From: Acidimicrobiales bacterium
GTDB taxonomy: Bacteria > Actinomycetota > Acidimicrobiia > Acidimicrobiales > VFJN01
DNA length: 64,000 bases
Direction: 5' to 3'
Assembly: GCA_040902805.1 (NCBI GenBank)
Contig: JBBDWQ010000019.1
Coordinates: forward strand, 65,774 to 129,773
This document shows positions 9,601 to 63,893 of the stretch, one piece after another (the first letter of the stretch is position 1; every line of letters starts with the position of its first letter). Made by a program: the position numbers and the translations under genes. Below the pieces are notes generated by a model, which was not told the origin of the DNA, ran no database searches, and saw only the letters and a list, made by a program, of their open reading frames with translations.

Positions 9601-10593
9601 ATGCTGCCTGTGGCGTTGGACGCTATGGGCGGGGACAAGGCGCCGGACGAGATCGTTGCCGGGGCGCATCGGGCAGTCGCTGAGCTCGGGGTTCCCGTCG
9701 CTCTTGTTGGCCAGCCTGACGTGCTCGGCTCCCTCGCCGGGGACCTCGAGATCATCCCTGCCTCCGAGGTGATCCCGATGAGCGCCGATCCTGGCGCCAG
9801 CGTGCGCCGGATGAAGGACAGCTCGCTGGTGCGCGCTGCGGAGGCGGTGCGAGACGGCAAGGCGTTCGCCATGATCTCGGCTGGCAACACGGGAGCCACG
9901 ATGGCGTCTGCGCTGTTGCGGATGGGACGGATCAAGGGCGTCTCACGACCCGCGATCGCCACGCCGATCCCAGTGCCTGGCTTCAACCCCACTGTGCTGC
10001 TCGACGCGGGGGCCAATGCCGAGTGCCAACCAGAGTGGCTGCTGCAGTTCGCGCAGATGGGCGCCGTGTTCGCACGCGATCGCTATGGGATCGCAGAGCC
10101 ACGGATCGGCTTGCTGTCGATCGGGGAAGAGGCAAGCAAGGGCACCCCGCTGGTGAAGGACACCCACGCTCTGCTCTCGGCATCGGATGCGCTCACGGCG
10201 GCGGGTGCGACCTTCATCGGCAACGTCGAGGGCCGCGATGTGATGACCGACGAGGTCGATGTGGTGGTCACGGACGGCTTCACTGGCAACGTCGTGCTCA
10301 AGACGCTCGAGGGTGGGATGCGCACCCTCGTGTCCGCCATCTTCGGTGCCTTCGGTACGAGCCCCGAGACGCAGGCAGCGGGCGAAGTGCTGATGCCGGC
10401 CCTCATGCCGCTCTATGGAACGCTCGATCCCGACAACACCGGTGGGGCCATGCTCCTTGGCGTCGACGGGCTGTGCCTCATCTCGCACGGGTCGAGCTCC
10501 GCCACAGCGATTGTGAACGCCATCCGGGTGGCCAAGGAGCTGCACGACCACGAGATCGTCGAGCGTCTCCGGGTCGCCGTGGCGCCGGCGTAG
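9601..10593 (+). CDS. plsX: Phosphate acyltransferase PlsX
   Basis: Carries MLPVALDAMGGDKAP, the VVTDGFTGNVVLK motif and ISHGSS. The rpmF-plsX linkage is conserved. Confidence 0.95.
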   Translation: MLPVALDAMGGDKAPDEIVAGAHRAVAELGVPVALVGQPDVLGSLAGDLEIIPASEVIPMSADPGASVRRMKDSSLVRAAEAVRDGKAFAMISAGNTGATMASALLRMGRIKGVSRPAIATPIPVPGFNPTVLLDAGANAECQPEWLLQFAQMGAVFARDRYGIAEPRIGLLSIGEEASKGTPLVKDTHALLSASDALTAAGATFIGNVEGRDVMTDEVDVVVTDGFTGNVVLKTLEGGMRTLVSAIFGAFGTSPETQAAGEVLMPALMPLYGTLDPDNTGGAMLLGVDGLCLISHGSSSATAIVNAIRVAKELHDHEIVERLRVAVAPA

Positions 10594-10758
10594 CCAGCCC
10601 CGTCGGAGCAGCCAGCTCACCGTTGCTCCCGTCGTTTGGGATCTTCACTCGTGCACAAGCGCACAAAGTCTCGGCGACGGTATGCTCCCGGACGCCCTAG
10701 ACCGCCGCGTGCAGGAGTGACCGTGCCCGCCGAGACCCACGTCGAACGAGGACAACCC

Positions 10759-11013
10759 ATGGACCGCCAGCAGGTGTTCGAGCTCATCCGTGACCGACTG
10801 GCCGACATCCTGGAGGTTGAGCCGGGCACGATCGTCGAGGGCGCGAGCTTTGCCGACGATCTCGAGGCCGACTCCCTCGCCCTCATCGAGCTGGTCGAAG
10901 CTCTGGAGGAGGAGCTCAGCGAGCGCTCAGTCGGGTTTCGCATCGACGACGAAGACCTCGAAGACCTGAAGACGGTGCGCGATGCCGTCGACTACGTCGT
11001 CGGCCGACTGTAG
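10759..11013 (+). CDS. acpP: Acyl carrier protein
   Basis: 84 aa with a DLEADSLALIELV phosphopantetheine-attachment Ser (DSL). GAGGA lies 7 nt upstream of ATG 10759. Confidence 0.85.
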   Translation: MDRQQVFELIRDRLADILEVEPGTIVEGASFADDLEADSLALIELVEALEEELSERSVGFRIDDEDLEDLKTVRDAVDYVVGRL

Positions 11014-11106
11014 AAGGCCGTCATCGCCCTCCCGGTACCCGGCCTGCCACGCCTGATCGAGCGCCTCCGACTCGACCTTGATCCTGCGCTTCTCGCGCCT
11101 GCGCTC

Positions 11107-11757
11107 GTGCACAGCTCCTGGTGCGCGGAGCACGCCGGCCATCCCTCCAATGAGCGCCTGGAGTTCCTCGGCGACTCCGTGCTCGGCGTGGTGATCACCG
11201 ATCACGTGTATCGCACCCACCACGATCTCCCCGAGGGTGACCTCACCGAGATCCGAAAGACCGTGGTGAACTCGGTTGCCCTTGCTGAGGTCGCTGAGGA
11301 GCTCGGCGTCGGACAGCACTTGCTGCTGGGCAAGGGCGAGGAGCTCTCCGGCGGGCGCGAGAAGCCGTCGATCCTGGCGGACGCCATGGAGGCGATCATC
11401 GGTGCCGTCTACCTCGCCCAGGGCCTCGAGGGCGCCGCCAGCCTGGTGCTGGGGATCCTCGGCCCCCGGCTTGCCACTGCGCAGGAGGACGGGGCCGACC
11501 ACAAGAGCCGCCTCCAGGAGCTCGCCGCCCGCGATCTTGCCAGCGCACCTCGCTACGAGGTGGAGGCCACCGGCCCCGACCACGCACGCACGTTTCACGT
11601 CACCGTCACCATCGACGGGGAGCCCCACGGCACCGGGGTCGGCCGCTCGAAGAAGCAGGCCGAGCAGAACGCCGCTCGTAGCGCCATCGACGCACTGTCC
11701 GACACCAACGACGGCAGCGATGTCGACGACACCCTGAGGGAGATCCACCATGGCTGA
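11107..11757 (+). CDS. rnc: Ribonuclease III
   Basis: Carries the NERLEFLGDSVLG signature, EAIIGAVYL and a C-terminal dsRBD (KSRLQELA...GVGRSKKQAEQNAA). The first canonical start is GTG 11107, but homology appears to extend upstream (see finding). Confidence 0.9.
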   Translation: MHSSWCAEHAGHPSNERLEFLGDSVLGVVITDHVYRTHHDLPEGDLTEIRKTVVNSVALAEVAEELGVGQHLLLGKGEELSGGREKPSILADAMEAIIGAVYLAQGLEGAASLVLGILGPRLATAQEDGADHKSRLQELAARDLASAPRYEVEATGPDHARTFHVTVTIDGEPHGTGVGRSKKQAEQNAARSAIDALSDTNDGSDVDDTLREIHHG

Positions 11758-12586
11758 GCTGCCCGAGCTGGAGACGGTTCGCCGGGAGCTGGAGAAGGAG
11801 GCCGTGGGCAAGCGATTCAAGGTCCCTGAGGTCACCGGCGCCAAGGTCGTGCGTCACAACGGCAACAAGAAGGTGTTCCAAGCCCGTCTCGAGGGGGCCA
11901 AGGTCAAGTCGGTCGACCGCAAGGGTCGGCTTCTCGTCGGCAACCTCGACAACGGGGAGCTGTTGGTCATCGACCTCGGCGAAGGCGGCCGACTCGAGAA
12001 GTTCGCGCCCAAGGATCCGCCCGCCAAGCACACCTTCGTGGTGTTCTCGTTCACGCAGGGCGGGCAGATCAGGCTCGTGGATCCGTCTGGCACCGCGCAG
12101 GTCTTCGTCGTGGCCAACGACGCGCTGGCCGACGAGGTTCCCTCGGTCGCCTCCGCTGGGCTCGACCCCGTGGCCGACACGGTGTCATGGACGTCGTTCG
12201 CCCGTCTGATCCTCAGCAAGAACGTGAAGCTGAAGGCGCTCCTGATGGACCCCACCGTCGTCGCCGCCATCGGGCCCATCTACAGCGACGAGATCCTCTG
12301 GGAAGCCGGGTTGCGCCATGACCGCATCTCCAGCGAGCTGTCCAGCCAGGAGATTCGCCGGCTGTTCCGGGCCCTCGTGGAGACCCTGCACGATGCCGTC
12401 AAGCACCGCGGCAGCACGGTCGACGAGTTCCCGTTCGTGGACCTCTATGGCAAGCCCGGGGACCACCAAGATGAGCTGAGGGTGTTCGGACGGGAAGGGG
12501 AGCCGTGCCGCAGATGCCGGGCTCCGATTGCCAAGGCCCGGTACGCCAACCGGCCCCTCTACTACTGCGAGGAATGTCAGGTCTGA
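11750..12586 (+). CDS. Fpg/Nei-family protein (formamidopyrimidine-DNA glycosylase homologue with substituted catalytic residues)
   Basis: The N-terminus MAELPELETVRREL aligns to the canonical MPELPEVETVRRGL. It has an H2TH region (LLMDPTVVAAIGPIYSDEILW) and a C-terminal CxxC-x16-CxxC zinc finger. It is syntenic with fpg next to rnc. Confidence 0.85.
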   Translation: MAELPELETVRRELEKEAVGKRFKVPEVTGAKVVRHNGNKKVFQARLEGAKVKSVDRKGRLLVGNLDNGELLVIDLGEGGRLEKFAPKDPPAKHTFVVFSFTQGGQIRLVDPSGTAQVFVVANDALADEVPSVASAGLDPVADTVSWTSFARLILSKNVKLKALLMDPTVVAAIGPIYSDEILWEAGLRHDRISSELSSQEIRRLFRALVETLHDAVKHRGSTVDEFPFVDLYGKPGDHQDELRVFGREGEPCRRCRAPIAKARYANRPLYYCEECQV

Positions 12587-12604
12587 GGGTGCTCAGACCC
12601 TCAG
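12583..12604 (+). terminator. Hairpin overlapping the fpg stop codon (8-bp stem CTGAGGGT/ACCCTCAG, 6-nt loop)
   Basis: A perfect inverted repeat is read directly from the sequence. It has no U-tract. Confidence 0.35.
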
Positions 12605-12630
12605 CGCGCGACCACTAGGTTCGGGTCCGG

Positions 12631-15600
12631 ATGTTCCTCAAGACCCTCACCCTGAAGGGCTTCAAGTCCTTCGCCGACACCACCGCCCTCGAGCTCGAAC
12701 CCGGCGTCACCGTCGTCGTCGGACCGAACGGGTCGGGCAAGTCCAACGTCGTCGACGCCATCGGCTGGGTGCTCGGCGCGCAGGCCCCCTCAGCGGTGCG
12801 CTCCCAGAAGATGGACGACGTCATCTTCGCGGGCACGTCCAAGCGCCCCGCCCTCGGCCGGGCCGAGGTGTCGCTCACGATCGACAACTCGGCAGGGTTG
12901 CTGCCGATCGACTTCACCGAGGTCACGATCACCCGCACCCTTTTCCGCACCGGCGACAGCGAGTACGCCATCAACGGTGTGCCGTGCCGACTGCTCGACA
13001 TCCAGGATCTGCTCTCCGACACGGGGGTGGGCCGCCAACAGCACGTGATCGTGAGCCAAGGCCAGATCGACGGGGTGCTCAACGCCCGCCCGGAGGATCG
13101 TCGGCTCATCCTCGAAGAGGCGGCAGGCGTCCTGAAGTACCGCAAGCGCAAGGAGAAGGCGGAGCGCCGTCTTGCTGCCACGGAGGGCAACCTCACCCGT
13201 CTCGGGGATCTGCTGCGCGAGGTCCGTCGCCAGCTCCGCCCGCTCGAGCGGCAGGCTGACGCGGCTCGCCGGCACGGAGACGTCGTGGCCGAGCTGCGAG
13301 CGCTGCAGGTGTTCCTTGCGGGCCGCGAGCTCACGACGCTCAAGCGGCGTCTCAGTGATGGCGGCGCCGCACGAGCAGAGCTTGCAAACGAGGAGACACT
13401 CATCCGCAAGACCCTCGCCGAGCTCGACTCGGCAGTGCTCGTCGCTGAGTCGGAGCTCGGCACCATCGGCGGCGATGACCTTGGCGACGCCTTGGTGCGC
13501 TTCGAGTCGCTTCGGGAGAAGGCCCGTGGTCTCGCGGCGGTGCTCACCGAACGCCGCCGGGGCATCGATCGAGAGCGAGGAGCCTTCGTCGACCAGGCCG
13601 TGATCGCGTCGCTCGAGGCGGAGGCGTCCCGACTCGGCGCGGACCTGGCTGAGGCGGACGCGGAGGCCGAGCTGCTGGCCCCGCGCGCCGAGGAGCTGGC
13701 CCGAGCCGAAGGTGCCCTGGCCGAGGCCCGCACCACGTACGAGCAGCAGTGGTCAGAGGGCGTGCCCGCGCCGACAGGGCGGGCCGCGGAGGCTCGTGGC
13801 GAGCTGGCTGCGCTGCGCGCCGGGGTCGAGCGGGGGGAGGCAGAGGTCGGTCGCTCTCGAGCGCGCCTCGGGGTGCTCGACGAGAAGGTCGAACGGCTCA
13901 CGGCCGAAGCCGAGCGCCTGCGAGGCGAAGCCGCAGACGCCGAGCAGGCTGAAGGCCCCCTCGTCGAGCGCCTGCAGGCCGCAGAAGCGGCGCGGAGTGA
14001 GGCCGAGGGACAGGTCGGGGATGCTGAGGAAGCACTGCGAACCGCCGACGCCGATCGTCACGCATGGACGGCACGCGCTGAGGCGTTGAGCCTGGCCCTC
14101 GATGAAGCGCGCTCACGCGCTGGCGCCGAGCGTCTCACGGCGGTGGCAGGCGTCGTCGGCACGCTGCTCGACCTCGTGCAGATCGATGACGGCTGGGAGA
14201 CTGCAGTCGAGGCCGCCGCCGGCGAGGCGCTCGCCGCTGTTGTGGTGGACGGCGTCGACGCGGCGCGCTCAGCAATCGCGGCTCTGCACGACGGTGACGA
14301 CACGGTGGGCGGAGCCGTCCTCGCGCTGGGCGCCACACGCACCGGTCCGGCAGCGCCGCCGATCGGCGAGCCCGTCCGCAAGCACGTCCGTGCGTCGCGT
14401 CCTGATGTCGAAGCGCTCCTCGATGCGCTCCTGGGCTCGGCCGTGGTGGTGGACGGTGGCTGGTCGGCGGCTGTCGACGCCGCGCTGGCCCACCCGGATG
14501 CCGTCGTGGTCACTCGCACGGGCGGTCGCTTCGGGCTGACCGGTTGGCGAGTCGGCACCGCGTCCACCGGCGCCACGGGCGCAGCGCTCGACGAAGCTCG
14601 GGAGCGCGCCGACGGGGCGACCACACTGGCCAACCACGCCGAGTCGAGCCTGCGCGGTGCTCGATCGCTCCTCGACGAGGCCCGCCAGGTCGAGGCCGCG
14701 CTGGCCCGCCAGCTCGACGAGCACGACGGCCGACTCTCTGCGGCCACCGATGGCCTGCGCCGTGTCGACGCCGATCACCGAGACGCCACCACAGAGGCCG
14801 AGGGCCTGCGTGGGCACGCGGACGAGATCGCCGAGCGACTCGCACGGGAGCAGGCGCGTGTCGCAGAGCTCGAGCTCACCCTGCCGTTGCTCGAAGCCGA
14901 AGAGGTCGATGCGGCGGAACGGTCCCGCGCCATGGCCGACGCCAAGGCTCACCTCGACGAGCGGGCTGCTGCGGTGGGGTCGCTGCGCACCGACCTCGAG
15001 GTGCAAGGCGCCGGGCTCGAGGAGCGGCGTCAGATGCTTCGCCGCCGCCAGGCCGAGGTGGAGGCCCGTCTCGAGGGGTCGATGGAGGCGCGGCGCGGCG
15101 CCGAGGAGCGTCGGATCGAGCTCGACGGGAAACAGGCGGCGGTCGATCGACTCGGAGCACTAGTCGCCGATCGGCTGGCGACCGTGGAGGGCGAGCTCGC
15201 TGACCTTCGTGAACGCCGCCGCCGTCAGAGCGAAAGCCAGCGCGCCGCCGCGACACGGCTCGATGGCCTGCGGCGCGAGCGTGTGGAGTCGGAGCGCAAG
15301 CTCGAGGAGACACGAGAGCGGGCTCGACGTGCCGAGCTCGACGAGGCAGAGGTGAAGCTTCGGCTCGAATCGGCGGTGGAGTCGCTCCGCCGCGATCTCG
15401 ACATCGACCCGGACGCGGCGATGTCGACCGAGCTTCCCGAGATCGCCGAGGGCACCACGCCCACAGCTCGCGTGCGCGAGCTCGAGCGCGACCTCCGCCT
15501 GATGGGTCCCATCAACCCGCTGGCGCTCGAGGAGTACAACGCCCTCCAGGAGCGGCATGAGTTCCTTGAGGCGCAGCTAGAGGACGTGAAGTCGTCGCGG

Positions 15601-43231: not shown

Positions 43232-46099
<2,868 letters not shown>

Positions 46100-59725: not shown

Positions 59726-60532
59726 GTGAGCTGGCGCTTTGCACTGACACCCAAGTGGATCGTTCGCCACGCCATGGTCGCGGCACTGATCGCGAGCATG
59801 ATCGCTCTCGGGCTTTGGCAGCTTCGACGCCTCGACGAGAAGCAGACCTACAAGGCGCTGGTCGAGTCCCGGCAGGAGCAGCCGATCGATGAGATCACCC
59901 GAGTTGTGCCCCGGACGGACGCCGTCGACGACGTGCGGGTTACGGAGGTCCTCTACCGGCGGGTGCGGGCCACAGGCACCTACATGACGAAGGACACCGT
60001 CGTGGTGGAGAACCGGACATTCAACGCGGCGCCGGGGGCGTGGGTCCTCACGCCACTCCGCTTGAAAGACGGTTCAGCGGTCGTAGTGAACCGAGGGTTC
60101 ATCGGGTACGGGCGTGCGGGTCTGATCGTCCCCCCTGCGCCTCCGGGAGGGCAGGTCACCGTCGAGGGGTTCGTGTTCCCGAGTCAGGCCCGCGGACGGT
60201 TCGGCCCGACCGATCCAACCGAGGGCCGACTCGAGGTCTTGGCCCGCGTGGAGCTGGGCCGCTACGCAGCCCAGCTCGATTACGACATCCTTCCGGCCTA
60301 TGTGCAGCTGGTGTCGAGTCAACCGGCCGAGCCGCCGGTCGCTGCCGGTGTGCCGGAGCTGGTCGCGCTTGGGCCCCCCGATCCGGATGACGGCCCGCAC
60401 CTGTCCTACGCGGTGCAGTGGGGGATCTTCACGGCCATCGCCTCGGGCGGTTACGTACTGGTGCTGCGTCGCGTGGCCCGGGACGAAGCCAAGCTCCGCA
60501 CCGGAGGGCAGGAAGGGTCCGGGAGCGGCTAA
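59726..60532 (+). CDS. SURF1-family (cytochrome oxidase assembly) membrane protein
   Basis: Has an N-terminal TM segment plus LWQLRRLDEK, a VNRGF motif, and a C-terminal TM segment with HLSYAVQW. Start is GTG 59726. Confidence 0.75.
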   Translation: MSWRFALTPKWIVRHAMVAALIASMIALGLWQLRRLDEKQTYKALVESRQEQPIDEITRVVPRTDAVDDVRVTEVLYRRVRATGTYMTKDTVVVENRTFNAAPGAWVLTPLRLKDGSAVVVNRGFIGYGRAGLIVPPAPPGGQVTVEGFVFPSQARGRFGPTDPTEGRLEVLARVELGRYAAQLDYDILPAYVQLVSSQPAEPPVAAGVPELVALGPPDPDDGPHLSYAVQWGIFTAIASGGYVLVLRRVARDEAKLRTGGQEGSGSG

Positions 60533-62670
60533 CGGTCCGAGTTCGGTGGGGTGTCCGCGTCCCCGCGCTGGCGCGGTGCGGGGCTCTTGCTCGCCACCTT
60601 CTTCTTGCTCACTGCCGTCTTGGTTGTTGCCTTAGTGGCAGCACGCGGCTTCTTCGCGGCTCCGGGTTTGGCGTTGGCCTGTGTGAGCTGCAGTGCGATC
60701 GTGGCGGCCCGTTCGGAAGCGACAGCCGCTCCGTCGACGCGCTCGGTGAGCATGCTCAGCTGCTCGCGCAAGGCTGCGAGGTCTGGCGCCACCTGCTCAT
60801 GCACGAGCGCTCGCGTCTCGGCGGGCGACGGCAGCGCGGCCATGCGCTCCGCGATCACGCGAACCTGGGCTCCCTGCGAATCAAGTTGGGCCAGCACGTT
60901 GACCGTCGACTCGGCCAGAGCGGTTGCGACGGCCTCGAGCTGGGAAGCGCCCGCCGGGCGTACGCGGGTCTCGGAGGTGATCGTTGCGCTGAGCCGGGCC
61001 AGCTGCGCCGCGACGGGACCGAGATCCGGGAGGGGCAAGCCAGCGATCCGATCGTCGATCTCGTGCAGCCGCTCGTGCAGCCGCTCGTGGAGCGGCAGCG
61101 GATCGAGCGGACGGAGCGCGGCGTTGAGTGCTTCGTTCAGGCGTGTCTCGATGTTGCGCAGGCGACCGTCCAATCGCTCGTCAATAGACGCGATCGTCTC
61201 GTCGCCCGCTTCCCGGGCCGCGTTCACCACGGCGCTACGAAGGGTGCCGACTGTCGAGGCGAAGCCGTCGGTGGCTGCGGTGACCCGAGCCACCGCTAGC
61301 GCCTGGGCGTCCGCCGCCTCCCGGCCATCGGTAAGGCTTGCGTCTGCTCGCACCTCGAGGCGGGTGACCGCAGCTCGGATCCCACTGAGCTGGGACTCGA
61401 GCGCCGCGAGCGGCTGAGTCCGATCTGCGACCTCGGCGATCGCGCTGGCGAGAAGAGCGATCTCGCGCTCAACGGTCTCCCGAGTGCTGGCCAGCTCCTC
61501 GATCCGCTCCGTGTGATCCGGTAGGAGCCCGACGCGCTCGTCGAGACGGTCGGTGGCTGCGCCCAACCCGGCCAGGCGGGGAGCGACCGTGGCCGAGAGC
61601 TGGTCGACGGCATCAAGAACGGCCGCCGGATCGGCCGTCGTGCGAATCAACTCCAACGCCGGGCTCAGCACTTCCGCCAGCTGGGCCGGCGTGGGGATCG
61701 CATCGAAGCGGTCAGCCATTGCGGTGCGCAAGCCGTCCAGCTCTGTGGCCAATCGCTGGACCTCCTCGCGTAAGGGGAGGTCGTCGTGGACCGGAATCGC
61801 CTGAACAAGTTCGCCGAGCCTGGCCACTTGGTCGGACACACCCTGGATCTCAGGCGGGGGCGGAAGCGCTTCGACGCTGCGACGAAGGTCGGTGACCTGC
61901 TCGGCTACGCCGGCCACGGAGGACTGCACCGCCGAATCGTCCGGAAACGGCAGATCGCGAACTTGGCTCTGCAATTCGAGCAACTGTGCATGCAGCGGAT
62001 CGAGGTCGACGGGTGGGAGCGCGGCGAGGCCATCGAGCAGCTGTCGAACGTCGGCGTGCATCGGCGCCAGATCGACCATCGGCAACGCGCCGATCTGTGC
62101 TTGGAGCTCGGTCACGCTGGATTGGATCGGTGAGAGGTCCAGTGTGGGTAGCGACGAAAGCGTGTCCCGGATGGACCGCAGCTCCTCGCGCAAATGACTG
62201 TCGTCGGGCGCCGGCAGAGACTCGAGGGCGGCGCCGAGGGCTTCGAGCCGATCGTGGATCGGGCGAAGATCTCGCGTCGCTATGGCGGCGACACGCACGT
62301 GCAGCTGGTCGAGCTGTTCACCGAGTGGTTCGAGGTCGGGGCTGGGTAGTGCGCTGATCTGATCGCGAAGTCGAGTCAGCTGATCCTGGATCGGTTCGAA
62401 CCGGCGGTCGCTCTGCACCTCCGCCAGCGACTGGCGCAGGAGGTCGGCGAGGAGCTCCACGACGGACCCTGTGGTCCTGAGGCGCTCGACCTCGCTGCGG
62501 ATCGATGCCTCCATCTGTGCCATGTGCTGGTCGAAGGCGACGACTCGCGCTTGGCGGCGTAGCTCACCTTCATCCAGCGCCTGCAGCTCAGATCGGAGGG
62601 CTCGGGCGAGGTCGACGACCTCGCCTCCCACCCCCTCGCCGGTCCCGTCCGGACCCTGGCTATCGGACAT
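60529..62670 (-). CDS. Orphan 713-aa helical repeat protein (22-residue Pro-punctuated repeats, Lys-rich C-terminal tail)
   Basis: A long ORF with a coherent, periodic protein sequence and G/C-rich third positions. The alternative + strand ORFs over it give Arg/Ser/Ala junk. No family recognised. Confidence 0.8.
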   Translation of the reverse strand: MSDSQGPDGTGEGVGGEVVDLARALRSELQALDEGELRRQARVVAFDQHMAQMEASIRSEVERLRTTGSVVELLADLLRQSLAEVQSDRRFEPIQDQLTRLRDQISALPSPDLEPLGEQLDQLHVRVAAIATRDLRPIHDRLEALGAALESLPAPDDSHLREELRSIRDTLSSLPTLDLSPIQSSVTELQAQIGALPMVDLAPMHADVRQLLDGLAALPPVDLDPLHAQLLELQSQVRDLPFPDDSAVQSSVAGVAEQVTDLRRSVEALPPPPEIQGVSDQVARLGELVQAIPVHDDLPLREEVQRLATELDGLRTAMADRFDAIPTPAQLAEVLSPALELIRTTADPAAVLDAVDQLSATVAPRLAGLGAATDRLDERVGLLPDHTERIEELASTRETVEREIALLASAIAEVADRTQPLAALESQLSGIRAAVTRLEVRADASLTDGREAADAQALAVARVTAATDGFASTVGTLRSAVVNAAREAGDETIASIDERLDGRLRNIETRLNEALNAALRPLDPLPLHERLHERLHEIDDRIAGLPLPDLGPVAAQLARLSATITSETRVRPAGASQLEAVATALAESTVNVLAQLDSQGAQVRVIAERMAALPSPAETRALVHEQVAPDLAALREQLSMLTERVDGAAVASERAATIALQLTQANAKPGAAKKPRAATKATTKTAVSKKKVASKSPAPRQRGDADTPPNSDR
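61060..61095 (-). repeat. 12-nt tandem repeat x3 (CTCGTGCAGCCG on + strand) encoding HERLHERLHE
   Basis: Two perfect copies plus one copy with 2 mismatches, read directly from the sequence. Confidence 0.7.
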
Positions 62671-62740
62671 GGGGCCGGAGATTAGGGCGCCTCAGCCCGG
62701 TCGGCGACTCATTGTGGTCTTTGGCGCGCGAGTCGCGTTG

Positions 62741-62770
62741 TTGACACTTGCGTGGCTCACTTCTTACCGT
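62741..62770 (+). promoter_or_regulatory. Candidate sigma-70-type promoter (TTGACA-18 nt-TACCGT) driving a leaderless diiron-protein mRNA
   Basis: The -35 element is a perfect consensus and the -10 fits TANNNT. The -10 ends 7 nt before ATG 62778, and there is no Shine-Dalgarno sequence. Confidence 0.4.
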
Positions 62771-62777
62771 CTCGCCC

Positions 62778-63893
62778 ATGAGCACGAACGAAGAGCTGAT
62801 CGGTCGGCAGGACATCGATGACCTCGAGGCAATTCTCGGCGTCACCAACACTGATGTGGGCGAGGTGATCCACGCGGTGAAGGACAACGCCGAAGCGATC
62901 TTCACGTGGGATTACGAGAAGGGCCAGCGCCCGGCGCTCAACCGTCTGTATGAGAAGGCCAAGACCTCGATGTGGAACGGCGAGACCGACCTCCCATGGG
63001 ACACCGAGGTGGATCAGGAGAAGGTGGTTGCCGAGAACGCCATGGCCAACGGTGGCTTCGATGCCGACATCGACGTCGCCGGAACCCCCATGGAGACCTG
63101 GGATGAGCTGAAGTGGCTGGAGTTCGGCATGGAGAGCCAGAACTGGATGTTGAGCCAGTTCATGCATGGCGAGCAGGGCGCACTGGTGTGCACCGCGAAG
63201 ATCGTGGAGACCGTGCCGTGGATCGATGCCAAGTACTACGCGTCCACACAGGTGATGGACGAGGCTCGGCATGTCGAGGTGTTCGCCAAGTACCTCGACA
63301 CCAAGCTGTCCGGTCACTACCCGATCAACGCACACCTCAAGATGCTCCTCGACGACATCCTCGAGGACTCTCGGTGGGACATGACCTACCTCGGCATGCA
63401 GATCATGGTCGAGGGCCTGGCGTTGGCCGCCTTCGGGTTCATGCACCAGATGACGACAGAGCCGCTGCTCAAGAAGCTCCTGCGGTATGTGATGAGCGAT
63501 GAGGCGCGCCACGTCGCCTTCGGTGTCCTGTCGCTCAAGGAGTACTACGCGGAGCTCACTGACGCCGAGATGCTTGAACGCCAGGAGTTCGCCTTCGAGG
63601 CCGCCGTGCGCATGCGTGATCGCTTCTTGCAGCAAGAGGTCTGGGACCGCATGGGCATCGACCCCAAGGTCGCCGCCAAGATGGTCCTGCAGGCCCCTCA
63701 GCGGCAGCTCTTCCAGAGCATGCTGTTCTCGAAGATCGTTCCCAACTGCAAGAAGCTCGGTCTCCTCGATCGCAACGACGGCTGGCTTCGGGGAAAGTTC
63801 ACCGAGTTGGGTGTGATCCAGTTCGAGGACCTCGTCGATACGGGCGAGGAGTACGAGATGTTCGCACTGGCCGAGGGTGAGATCGCGTCGTAA
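62778..63893 (+). CDS. Ferritin-like diiron-carboxylate (oxygenase/desaturase-class) protein
   Basis: The ligand pattern is E...DEARH...E...DEARH (HGEQGA, MDEARHVEVF, MVEGLA, SDEARHVAFG). 371 aa. Confidence 0.8.
   Translation: MSTNEELIGRQDIDDLEAILGVTNTDVGEVIHAVKDNAEAIFTWDYEKGQRPALNRLYEKAKTSMWNGETDLPWDTEVDQEKVVAENAMANGGFDADIDVAGTPMETWDELKWLEFGMESQNWMLSQFMHGEQGALVCTAKIVETVPWIDAKYYASTQVMDEARHVEVFAKYLDTKLSGHYPINAHLKMLLDDILEDSRWDMTYLGMQIMVEGLALAAFGFMHQMTTEPLLKKLLRYVMSDEARHVAFGVLSLKEYYAELTDAEMLERQEFAFEAAVRMRDRFLQQEVWDRMGIDPKVAAKMVLQAPQRQLFQSMLFSKIVPNCKKLGLLDRNDGWLRGKFTELGVIQFEDLVDTGEEYEMFALAEGEIAS

Follow-up and report, generated by a model that had tools for sequence, protein, structure and literature searches.

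What kind of protein is built from successive units of 22 residues broken by proline, and what could it do inside a bacterium? The question is raised by a coding sequence (CDS) on the minus strand, 60529..62670, of a 64,000-nucleotide stretch from an Acidimicrobiales bacterium (GenBank assembly GCA_040902805.1, contig JBBDWQ010000019.1, positions 65,774 to 129,773 of the forward strand); this whole stretch is called the window here. A sequence-only reading had proposed an orphan protein of an undescribed type, a surface coat or scaffold built to the design of the exchangeable apolipoproteins. From our analysis the product is best described as an uncharacterised, lineage-restricted structural protein that appears to join a segmented helical-bundle stalk to the histone-H1-like tail of actinobacterial proteins, rather than as new biology. 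Our leading explanation, to which we give a probability of roughly 45%, is that it forms a cytoplasmic, elongated, homo-oligomeric rod of variable length that is tethered to nucleoid DNA.

The gene is real, conserved and fast-evolving, and is so far found only in Microthrixaceae-type Acidimicrobiales. The CDS (WD691_03825) is present exactly as first read, a complete open reading frame (ORF) with an ATG start that encodes 713 amino acids plus stop. The GC content at its three codon positions (0.78/0.48/0.78) resembles that of the neighbouring genes, and this pattern together with conservation in relatives establishes the frame as coding; conserved synteny and conserved sequence islands likewise rule out a spurious ORF. 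The product is all-helical and predicted to be cytoplasmic, and neither a signal peptide nor a transmembrane (TM) helix was found in it (the maximum 19-residue Kyte-Doolittle mean over the first 60 residues is 0.5). Its sequence is identical to that of a "hypothetical protein" in an Acidimicrobiales metagenome-assembled genome (MAG). The repeat array, whose span is the one first reported, lies in the N-terminal half:

61771..62415, minus strand: repeat array of ~9-10 units (residues 86-300), each a 7-residue linker x-L-P-x-x-D-L and a 15-residue helix starting from x-P
61954..62349, minus strand: array core of six consecutive units of exactly 22 amino acids (residues 108-239)

Printing the protein from residue 108 in a 22-residue register reproduced the six units letter for letter, as well as the degenerate copies said to flank them (at 91-107, 240, 269 and 292). 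The periodicity is far beyond chance: BLOSUM62 self-similarity over residues 85-330 gave z = 9.6, 7.7 and 7.4 at lags of 22, 44 and 66 when compared with 500 shuffles, and no lag-22 signal was seen in residues 330-713. Of the two isolated copies reported near the C-terminus, both (545-566 and 613) were reproduced too, but a hidden Markov model (HMM) built from the six units, which matched 7 units (5 of them at the exact spacing of 22) plus the isolated unit at 545, missed the one at 613. Tandem Repeats Finder reported no period-66 tandem repeat in the DNA, and the repeat copies are therefore old and diverged. The core units are mutually only ~27-33% identical, yet the spacing is held at exactly 22 residues across all six. 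The unit was found in no other ORF of the window.

Within the core units hydrophobic residues occupy positions 1, 6, 9, 13, 16 and 20, an aspartate at position 5 is invariant, and prolines at positions 2 and 8 are present in 5 of the 6 units. The most conserved positions are L1, P2, D5, L6 and P8, with the helix beginning at x7-P8. The resulting spacing of hydrophobics, 5-3-4-3-4-3, corresponds to three heptads with a/d positions plus one extra residue that is taken up by the linker, and the Fourier peak of the strong hydrophobics lies at 3.65 residues, or 22/6. Only ~27% of the positions in the helix are consistently hydrophobic, with four hydrophobics at heptad spacing in each helix of 15 residues, and the six units contain no lysine and no aromatic residue. 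We modelled the full-length protein with AlphaFold2 (AF2) from a 7-sequence alignment (pLDDT 54, pTM 0.22) and the repeat region alone (pLDDT 60, pTM 0.38), and used these models for secondary structure only. The two independent runs concur in dividing the array into 15-18-residue helices with 4-7-residue linkers between them, confirming the proline turn followed by a helix of about 15 residues that had been read from the letters.

Among solved structures the only significant match is the neck of the human receptor DC-SIGNR (PDB 3jqh), with E = 1.6e-6 for the whole protein, 4.1e-7 for the repeat region and 2.9e-11 (45.8 bits) for a profile of the family; the alignment to 3jqh_A stays in register over more than 6 repeats with one gap per unit. 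The DC-SIGNR neck is composed of 23-residue repeats, each an ~18-residue helix with heptad a/d hydrophobics, which form serial parallel four-helix bundles joined by short proline linkers with a rise of 36.7 Å per repeat; the neck is polymorphic in its repeat number (PMC2971551).

The second part of the protein that may bear on its function is the C-terminus:

60532..60690, minus strand: disordered basic tail (residues 661-713), rich in Lys, Ala, Pro and Thr and histone-H1-like

All 9 lysines of the protein lie in this tail, whose residues 661-700 have an isoelectric point (pI) of 12. The body (residues 1-660) contains no lysine, 61 Arg, 53 Asp and 56 Glu, giving a net charge of -48 and a pI of 4.6, and the whole protein is without Trp, Tyr and Cys. 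A Lys/Ala/Pro/Thr tail ends every complete orthologue, with its composition kept and its sequence not; in most of them the last 60 residues carry a net charge of +11 to +18, and AKKA or PAKK motifs occur in several, with 3-4 AKKA and up to 5 PAKK in five (P0004, P0006, P0011, P0013 and P0072). Tails of this kind have been studied in other proteins. The Lys/Ala/Pro tail of HbhA is necessary and sufficient for DNA binding (PMC10665949), those of Ku and Hlp act on DNA (PMC3553676), and the C-terminal PAKKA motifs of MLDS bind DNA (PMC5504291). By these precedents we infer that residues 661-713 bind DNA or another polyanion. Because the tail is conserved in every complete orthologue, a scaffold role involving the nucleoid, which was one part of the sequence-only reading, is plausible.

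Conservation is concentrated in four islands (residues 53-72, 314-322, 452-472 and 546-567), which lie in or form the following elements:

62410..62631, minus strand: N-terminal long helix (residues 14-87), including the invariant island 53-72 MEASIRSEVERLRTTGSVVE
61705..61731, minus strand: conserved island LRTAMADRF (residues 314-322), directly after the array
61126..61512, minus strand: predicted uninterrupted helix of 129 residues (387-515), including the island 452-472 AADAQALAVARVTAATDGFAS
60970..61038, minus strand: isolated near-invariant repeat unit LPLPDLGPVAAQLARLSATITSE (residues 545-567)

Residues 17-90 are well conserved, with a mean of 0.52 of 6 relatives identical, and conservation within the family is highest at residues 545-567 (0.83), a candidate site for binding a partner. 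In the AF2 models a 74-residue N-terminal helix is followed by the 15+7 units, by longer helices including 387-515, and by a disordered tail from about residue 665. Near the isolated unit we also observed a 12-bp in-frame tandem repeat, CTCGTGCAGCCG, at 61060-61093 of the window (2.8 copies, 95% matches), which encodes "HERLHERLHE" at about residues 527-537; this minor duplication is recent and lies outside the array of 22-mers.

How the protein varies between genomes bears on how the array might work. A HMMER scan run exhaustively over 1.84 billion cluster representatives matched only 80 proteins at E <= 0.001. Segment-wise comparison found that ~19 of these (fragments included) share the non-repeat parts and so are orthologues, making "orphan" too strong a word; another ~30 belong to a different family that has only the repeat in common with the target. 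All orthologue sources that carry names are Acidimicrobiales or Microthrixaceae MAGs, and a pattern scan of 185,579 GTDB species genomes returned two loci, both in Microthrixaceae MAGs. The target protein is 30-36% identical to its relatives, while the flanking proteins in the same genomes are 56-94% identical. Among eleven proteins counted, the number of units ranges from 4 to 19, and relatives reach about 1150 amino acids. Unit lengths of 22-26 occur in the orthologues, with 15-residue half-units in addition and lengths of 33 and 37 as well. In one orthologue (P0004, locus L001) a recent tandem duplication of units, 180 bp x4 (360 bp x2) with 87-94% identity, lies at 10353-11073, and a 15-bp tandem repeat at 13358-13423 specifies its tail (KAPAK), which shows that both low-complexity parts are still expanding. 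One gene call is probably too long: the 1210-residue product called at 10001-13633 of locus L002 (P0007) continues through the antisense strand of SURF1, which tblastn places at 13588-12806 within the called gene and which was not itself called there. The last ~270 residues of that product are probably an artefact of a frameshift or of gene calling, with a Lys/Ala/Pro tail near residue 930 as the probable end of the true orthologue.

The leading explanation brings these observations together as follows. Like the chains of the DC-SIGNR neck, identical chains would form a parallel, in-register assembly in which each 22-mer makes one short helical-bundle segment of ~3.5 nm. When the rise measured for DC-SIGNR is applied, the array is predicted to form a segmented stalk ~30-35 nm long here and ~15-65 nm in relatives. 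The conserved N-terminal helix, which would nucleate oligomerisation, and the 129-residue central helix would hold the oligomer together, and the four invariant islands may be contact sites for the oligomer or for another partner. The basic tail would bind DNA without sequence specificity, and an oligomer with several such tails could act as a bridge or anchor for chromosomal DNA. An in-register parallel homo-oligomer would tolerate units of variable length, and the fast drift, the retained hydrophobic pattern and the variable number of units fit a spacer whose length outweighs its exact sequence.

Several observations weigh against this explanation. The linker in the target is 7 residues long with two prolines and an invariant aspartate, and the helix is 15 residues compared with ~18 in DC-SIGNR; this longer linker and shorter helix may make the segments flexible or change how they pack. 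The score of the DC-SIGNR match adds up over successive units built alike; the match shows an analogy of repeat design and not homology, and inflated E-values are a known feature of coiled-coil-like repeats (PMC3695513). The AF2 monomer models are both of low confidence (pLDDT 54 and 60), and a Foldseek search of the PDB with the full-length and the repeat-region models returned no match at E <= 0.001. The tail of the window protein is a weak version of its kind: it has one AAKK and three KK but neither AKKA nor PAKK. Heparan sulphate is another ligand of Lys-rich tails, and the polyanion could be RNA or polyphosphate. Finally, the neighbouring genes supply no hint of function.

Of the alternatives, a tether between a storage inclusion and the nucleoid, or a coat of the inclusion, takes up most directly the apolipoprotein design that the sequence-only reading had favoured, and we consider it unlikely but a serious rival. 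It would place the 22-mer helices on a lipid droplet or on a granule of polyhydroxyalkanoate (PHA) or polyphosphate and the tail on DNA, in the manner of MLDS or PhaF. MLDS follows exactly this two-part logic: at its N-terminus a domain with an "apolipoprotein motif" targets it to droplets, and at its C-terminus PAKKA motifs bind DNA (PMC5504291). The family is confined to Microthrixaceae-type Acidimicrobiales, and Candidatus Microthrix has the potential for triacylglycerol storage as well as polyphosphate granules (PMC8267870), but neither of the two Microthrixaceae MAGs found in the GTDB scan is named Ca. Microthrix. An AMP-binding gene of the acyl-CoA-ligase type is a conserved near neighbour, but none of the loci examined has a WS/DGAT, PHA or ppk gene next to the target. 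At the level of the repeat, the family profile touches apoA-I weakly with its "xP[LY]" helix starts aligned, but at E = 0.018-0.045 (~16 bits) for the PDB apoA-I chains the score is some 30 bits below that for DC-SIGNR and is not significant. The Apolipoprotein model PF01442 was not matched by the window protein at E <= 10; no apolipoprotein, phasin (PF05597, PF09361) or perilipin model was matched by the window protein (E <= 10 for the apolipoprotein and phasin models) or by any of 7 family members (E <= 0.01 for the same models). The apolipoprotein design is not supported as the closest model. Hydrophobic moments of the core units (0.24-0.60) and their apolar arcs (60-200 degrees) overlap those of apoA-I units (0.21-0.38 and 120-160 degrees), and moment and arc do not separate the target repeats from those of apoA-I or DC-SIGNR, so that a surface coat is physically conceivable. 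Against a coat stands the composition of the unit itself, one third of which is a non-helical two-proline linker, and which has only four hydrophobics at heptad spacing in its 15-residue helix and neither lysine nor aromatic residues.

A second alternative, which we regard as distinctly improbable, is that the array acts as a monomer, either as an alpha-solenoid or beads-on-a-string scaffold or through L-P-x-x-D-L-x-P linkers that serve as multivalent motifs for recruiting partners. The most conserved positions of the unit (L1, P2, D5, L6 and P8) lie in the linker and not in the helix, but capping and termination of the helix explain them equally well. Exact spacing through six units of such low mutual identity would suit the stacking of unit on unit; in the orthologues, however, unit length takes values of 22, 23, 25, 26, 33 and 37, and the hydrophobic stripe, covering ~27% of helix positions, is narrow and poorly suited to packing on two neighbours. 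The AF2 monomer model of the array alone reached a pTM of 0.38, but it is a low-confidence model, and no known solenoid was matched in the structure search. No better placed is a more elaborate reading, in which the protein is a cytoskeletal or nucleoid-organising element specific to the Microthrixaceae. Here an acidic segmented rod would self-assemble, its multivalent basic tails would bridge DNA or bind neighbouring acidic rods, chromosomes would be spaced or anchored by the resulting network or condensate, the repeat number would be an evolvable molecular ruler, and the unit at 545-567 would dock a partner; we think this, too, improbable.

The least probable of all is an HbhA-like fibrillar adhesin, surface-exposed or secreted without a classical signal peptide and binding anionic polymers of the envelope or of cells with its tail: HbhA itself combines a coiled coil with a Lys/Pro/Ala tail that binds sulphated glycoconjugates and has no signal peptide (PMC10665949), the faster evolution of the target than of its neighbours and its variable repeat number are typical of surface proteins, and Microthrix filaments have a hydrophobic surface (PMC8267870), but in the target neither a signal peptide nor a TM segment nor a hydrophobic domain at the N-terminus is present (maximum Kyte-Doolittle value 0.5), no sortase or S-layer motif was found in it, no secretion genes lie near the locus in the loci examined, and the HbhA study itself shows the tail acting on DNA inside the cell (PMC10665949).

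Database searches gave the protein no established family name. No model in Pfam or NCBIfam reaches its curated cut-off, so that the statement that the protein matches no family was nearly right; the best Pfam match is PF04513 Baculo_PEP_C, at 32.1 bits (E = 1.4e-7) where the gathering cut-off is 38. Each of the 7 aligned family members matches this model too at E <= 0.01, the best with E = 2.2e-15. PF04513 is documented as one of the families in Pfam that most readily give overlapping matches where coiled coils are predicted (PMC3695513), and we reject homology for this promiscuity of the model and the sub-threshold score; the target also lacks the N-terminal domain of baculoviral PEP. PF05531 NPV_P10 was likewise among the best sub-threshold matches, and these two models, as well as DUF7310, DUF7553, DUF2730 and DUF1664, catch the same short helix motif. 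SMC and Rad50 are excluded, as their models were matched far below cut-off through the coiled-coil arms only and the ATPase head is absent. The automatic name "chromosome segregation ATPase" that the source gives to two relatives (P0005 and P0011) is coiled-coil noise, and a body without lysine cannot contain a GxxxxGK[ST] motif. PHROGs gave a single match, to the SbcC coiled-coil arm at E = 0.001, and PADLOC gave none; on these results and the stable housekeeping locus we reject a phage or defence origin.

The unit also occurs outside the orthologues. It is found in one protein that matches a phage tail tape-measure family, and in ~30 proteins from Myxococcales and Pseudomonadota MAGs it stands between an N-terminal TM helix and a C-terminal module. 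Judged from these sequences, its use in other proteins appears stalk-like. Of "undescribed type", then, the uncharacterised status stands, but the unit itself recurs in other architectures and is weakly caught by several Pfam coiled-coil families. The repeat-sharing family (P0014, P0016, P0017, P0020, P0021, P0023, P0025, P0027 and ~20 more) combines its TM helix and PxxDLxP-helix repeat with a module of the form GVGPxLxxLLxxxGVFYFWQIAEW, which NCBIfam models place at the C-termini of alphaproteobacterial NuoE, L21, S2 and the phasin PhaH. The source names of these repeat-only relatives are all "hypothetical protein" or absent.

The position of the gene is kept in every relative fetched, with a gene for an AurF-like diiron protein on one side and SURF1 and the AMP-binding ligase on the other. 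The surrounding block is a housekeeping one (ftsK-rnj-dapA ... dapB-pepM16-pnp-rpsO), and the synteny looks like vertical inheritance inside it. In the window the stop codons of the target on the minus strand and of the convergent SURF1 on the plus strand overlap at 60529-60532 with no terminator-like hairpin between them, so that both transcripts must share sequence at their 3′ ends. On the other side the AurF-like ORF abuts the region upstream of the target (62671-62747), and the intergenic gap is 77 bp if its TTG start at 62748 is real; the two distant relatives both have a TetR-family gene between the AurF-like gene and the target (L001 9134-9769; L002 9301-9972). A promoter and terminator scan of 60300-62900 returned nothing, such a scan being uninformative for a high-GC actinobacterium. 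Elsewhere in the window, at 43232-46099 on the plus strand, a 955-residue ORF has a Lys/Ala/Thr-rich low-complexity stretch close to its N-terminus; by its size and its position upstream of the pnp block, we take it to be probably translation initiation factor IF-2.

If the rod tethered to DNA is the right reading, the protein would be a bacterial, cytoplasmic counterpart of a Pro-segmented helical-bundle stalk that has so far been solved only in a mammalian lectin, here combined with a histone-H1-like tail of the sort carried by many DNA-handling proteins of Actinomycetota. It would add one more lineage-specific structural or nucleoid-associated protein to the poorly studied Acidimicrobiia, and its orthologues would provide a natural series of 4-19-unit rods for studying how length is set in segmented bundles. 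The family is rare, it opens no long-standing question and indicates no new principle, and its function is one that we infer.

Set beside known systems, the protein shares a part of its design with each. With the apoA-I 22-mers it has in common the 22-residue period, prolines at the helix starts and a hydrophobic periodicity of 3.67 residues; apoA-I units, in contrast, are helical throughout and have a single proline, interfacial lysines and aromatics, whereas in the target 7 of 22 residues are linker, with two prolines and neither lysine nor aromatics. Rhodococcus MLDS resembles it in its two-part logic, in which the N-terminal part is helical and amphipathic and a histone-H1-like tail anchors a cellular body to DNA, an arrangement also found in Pseudomonas PhaF and Ralstonia PhaM. 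Compared with these three, the target is far longer and has short, interrupted repeat helices; it has no detectable apolipoprotein or phasin domain, and no inclusion-biogenesis genes lie near it. HbhA, HupB/Hlp, Ku and TopA share with it a helical body, which in the target would likewise oligomerise, followed by a disordered Lys/Ala/Pro-rich C-terminal tail, which in those proteins is a non-specific DNA-binding element; the resemblance to HbhA-type proteins is one of architecture and tail composition. HbhA has 199 residues, with a hydrophobic N-terminal domain (~18 residues) and a continuous coiled coil of 81 residues, whereas the 713-residue target has Pro-segmented repeats, no hydrophobic N-terminus and a tail poorer in canonical motifs. 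The necks of DC-SIGNR and DC-SIGN (CD209L and CD209) belong to C-type lectins with a type II membrane anchor and a C-terminal lectin domain, and the target, which is bacterial and predicted to be cytoplasmic, has neither the anchor nor the lectin domain (no Lectin_C match). It is nonetheless like them in the plan of the unit, 22 residues compared with 23, with a heptad a/d helix and a proline linker, and like the DC-SIGNR neck its array varies in repeat number and would act as a stalk between terminal functional parts.

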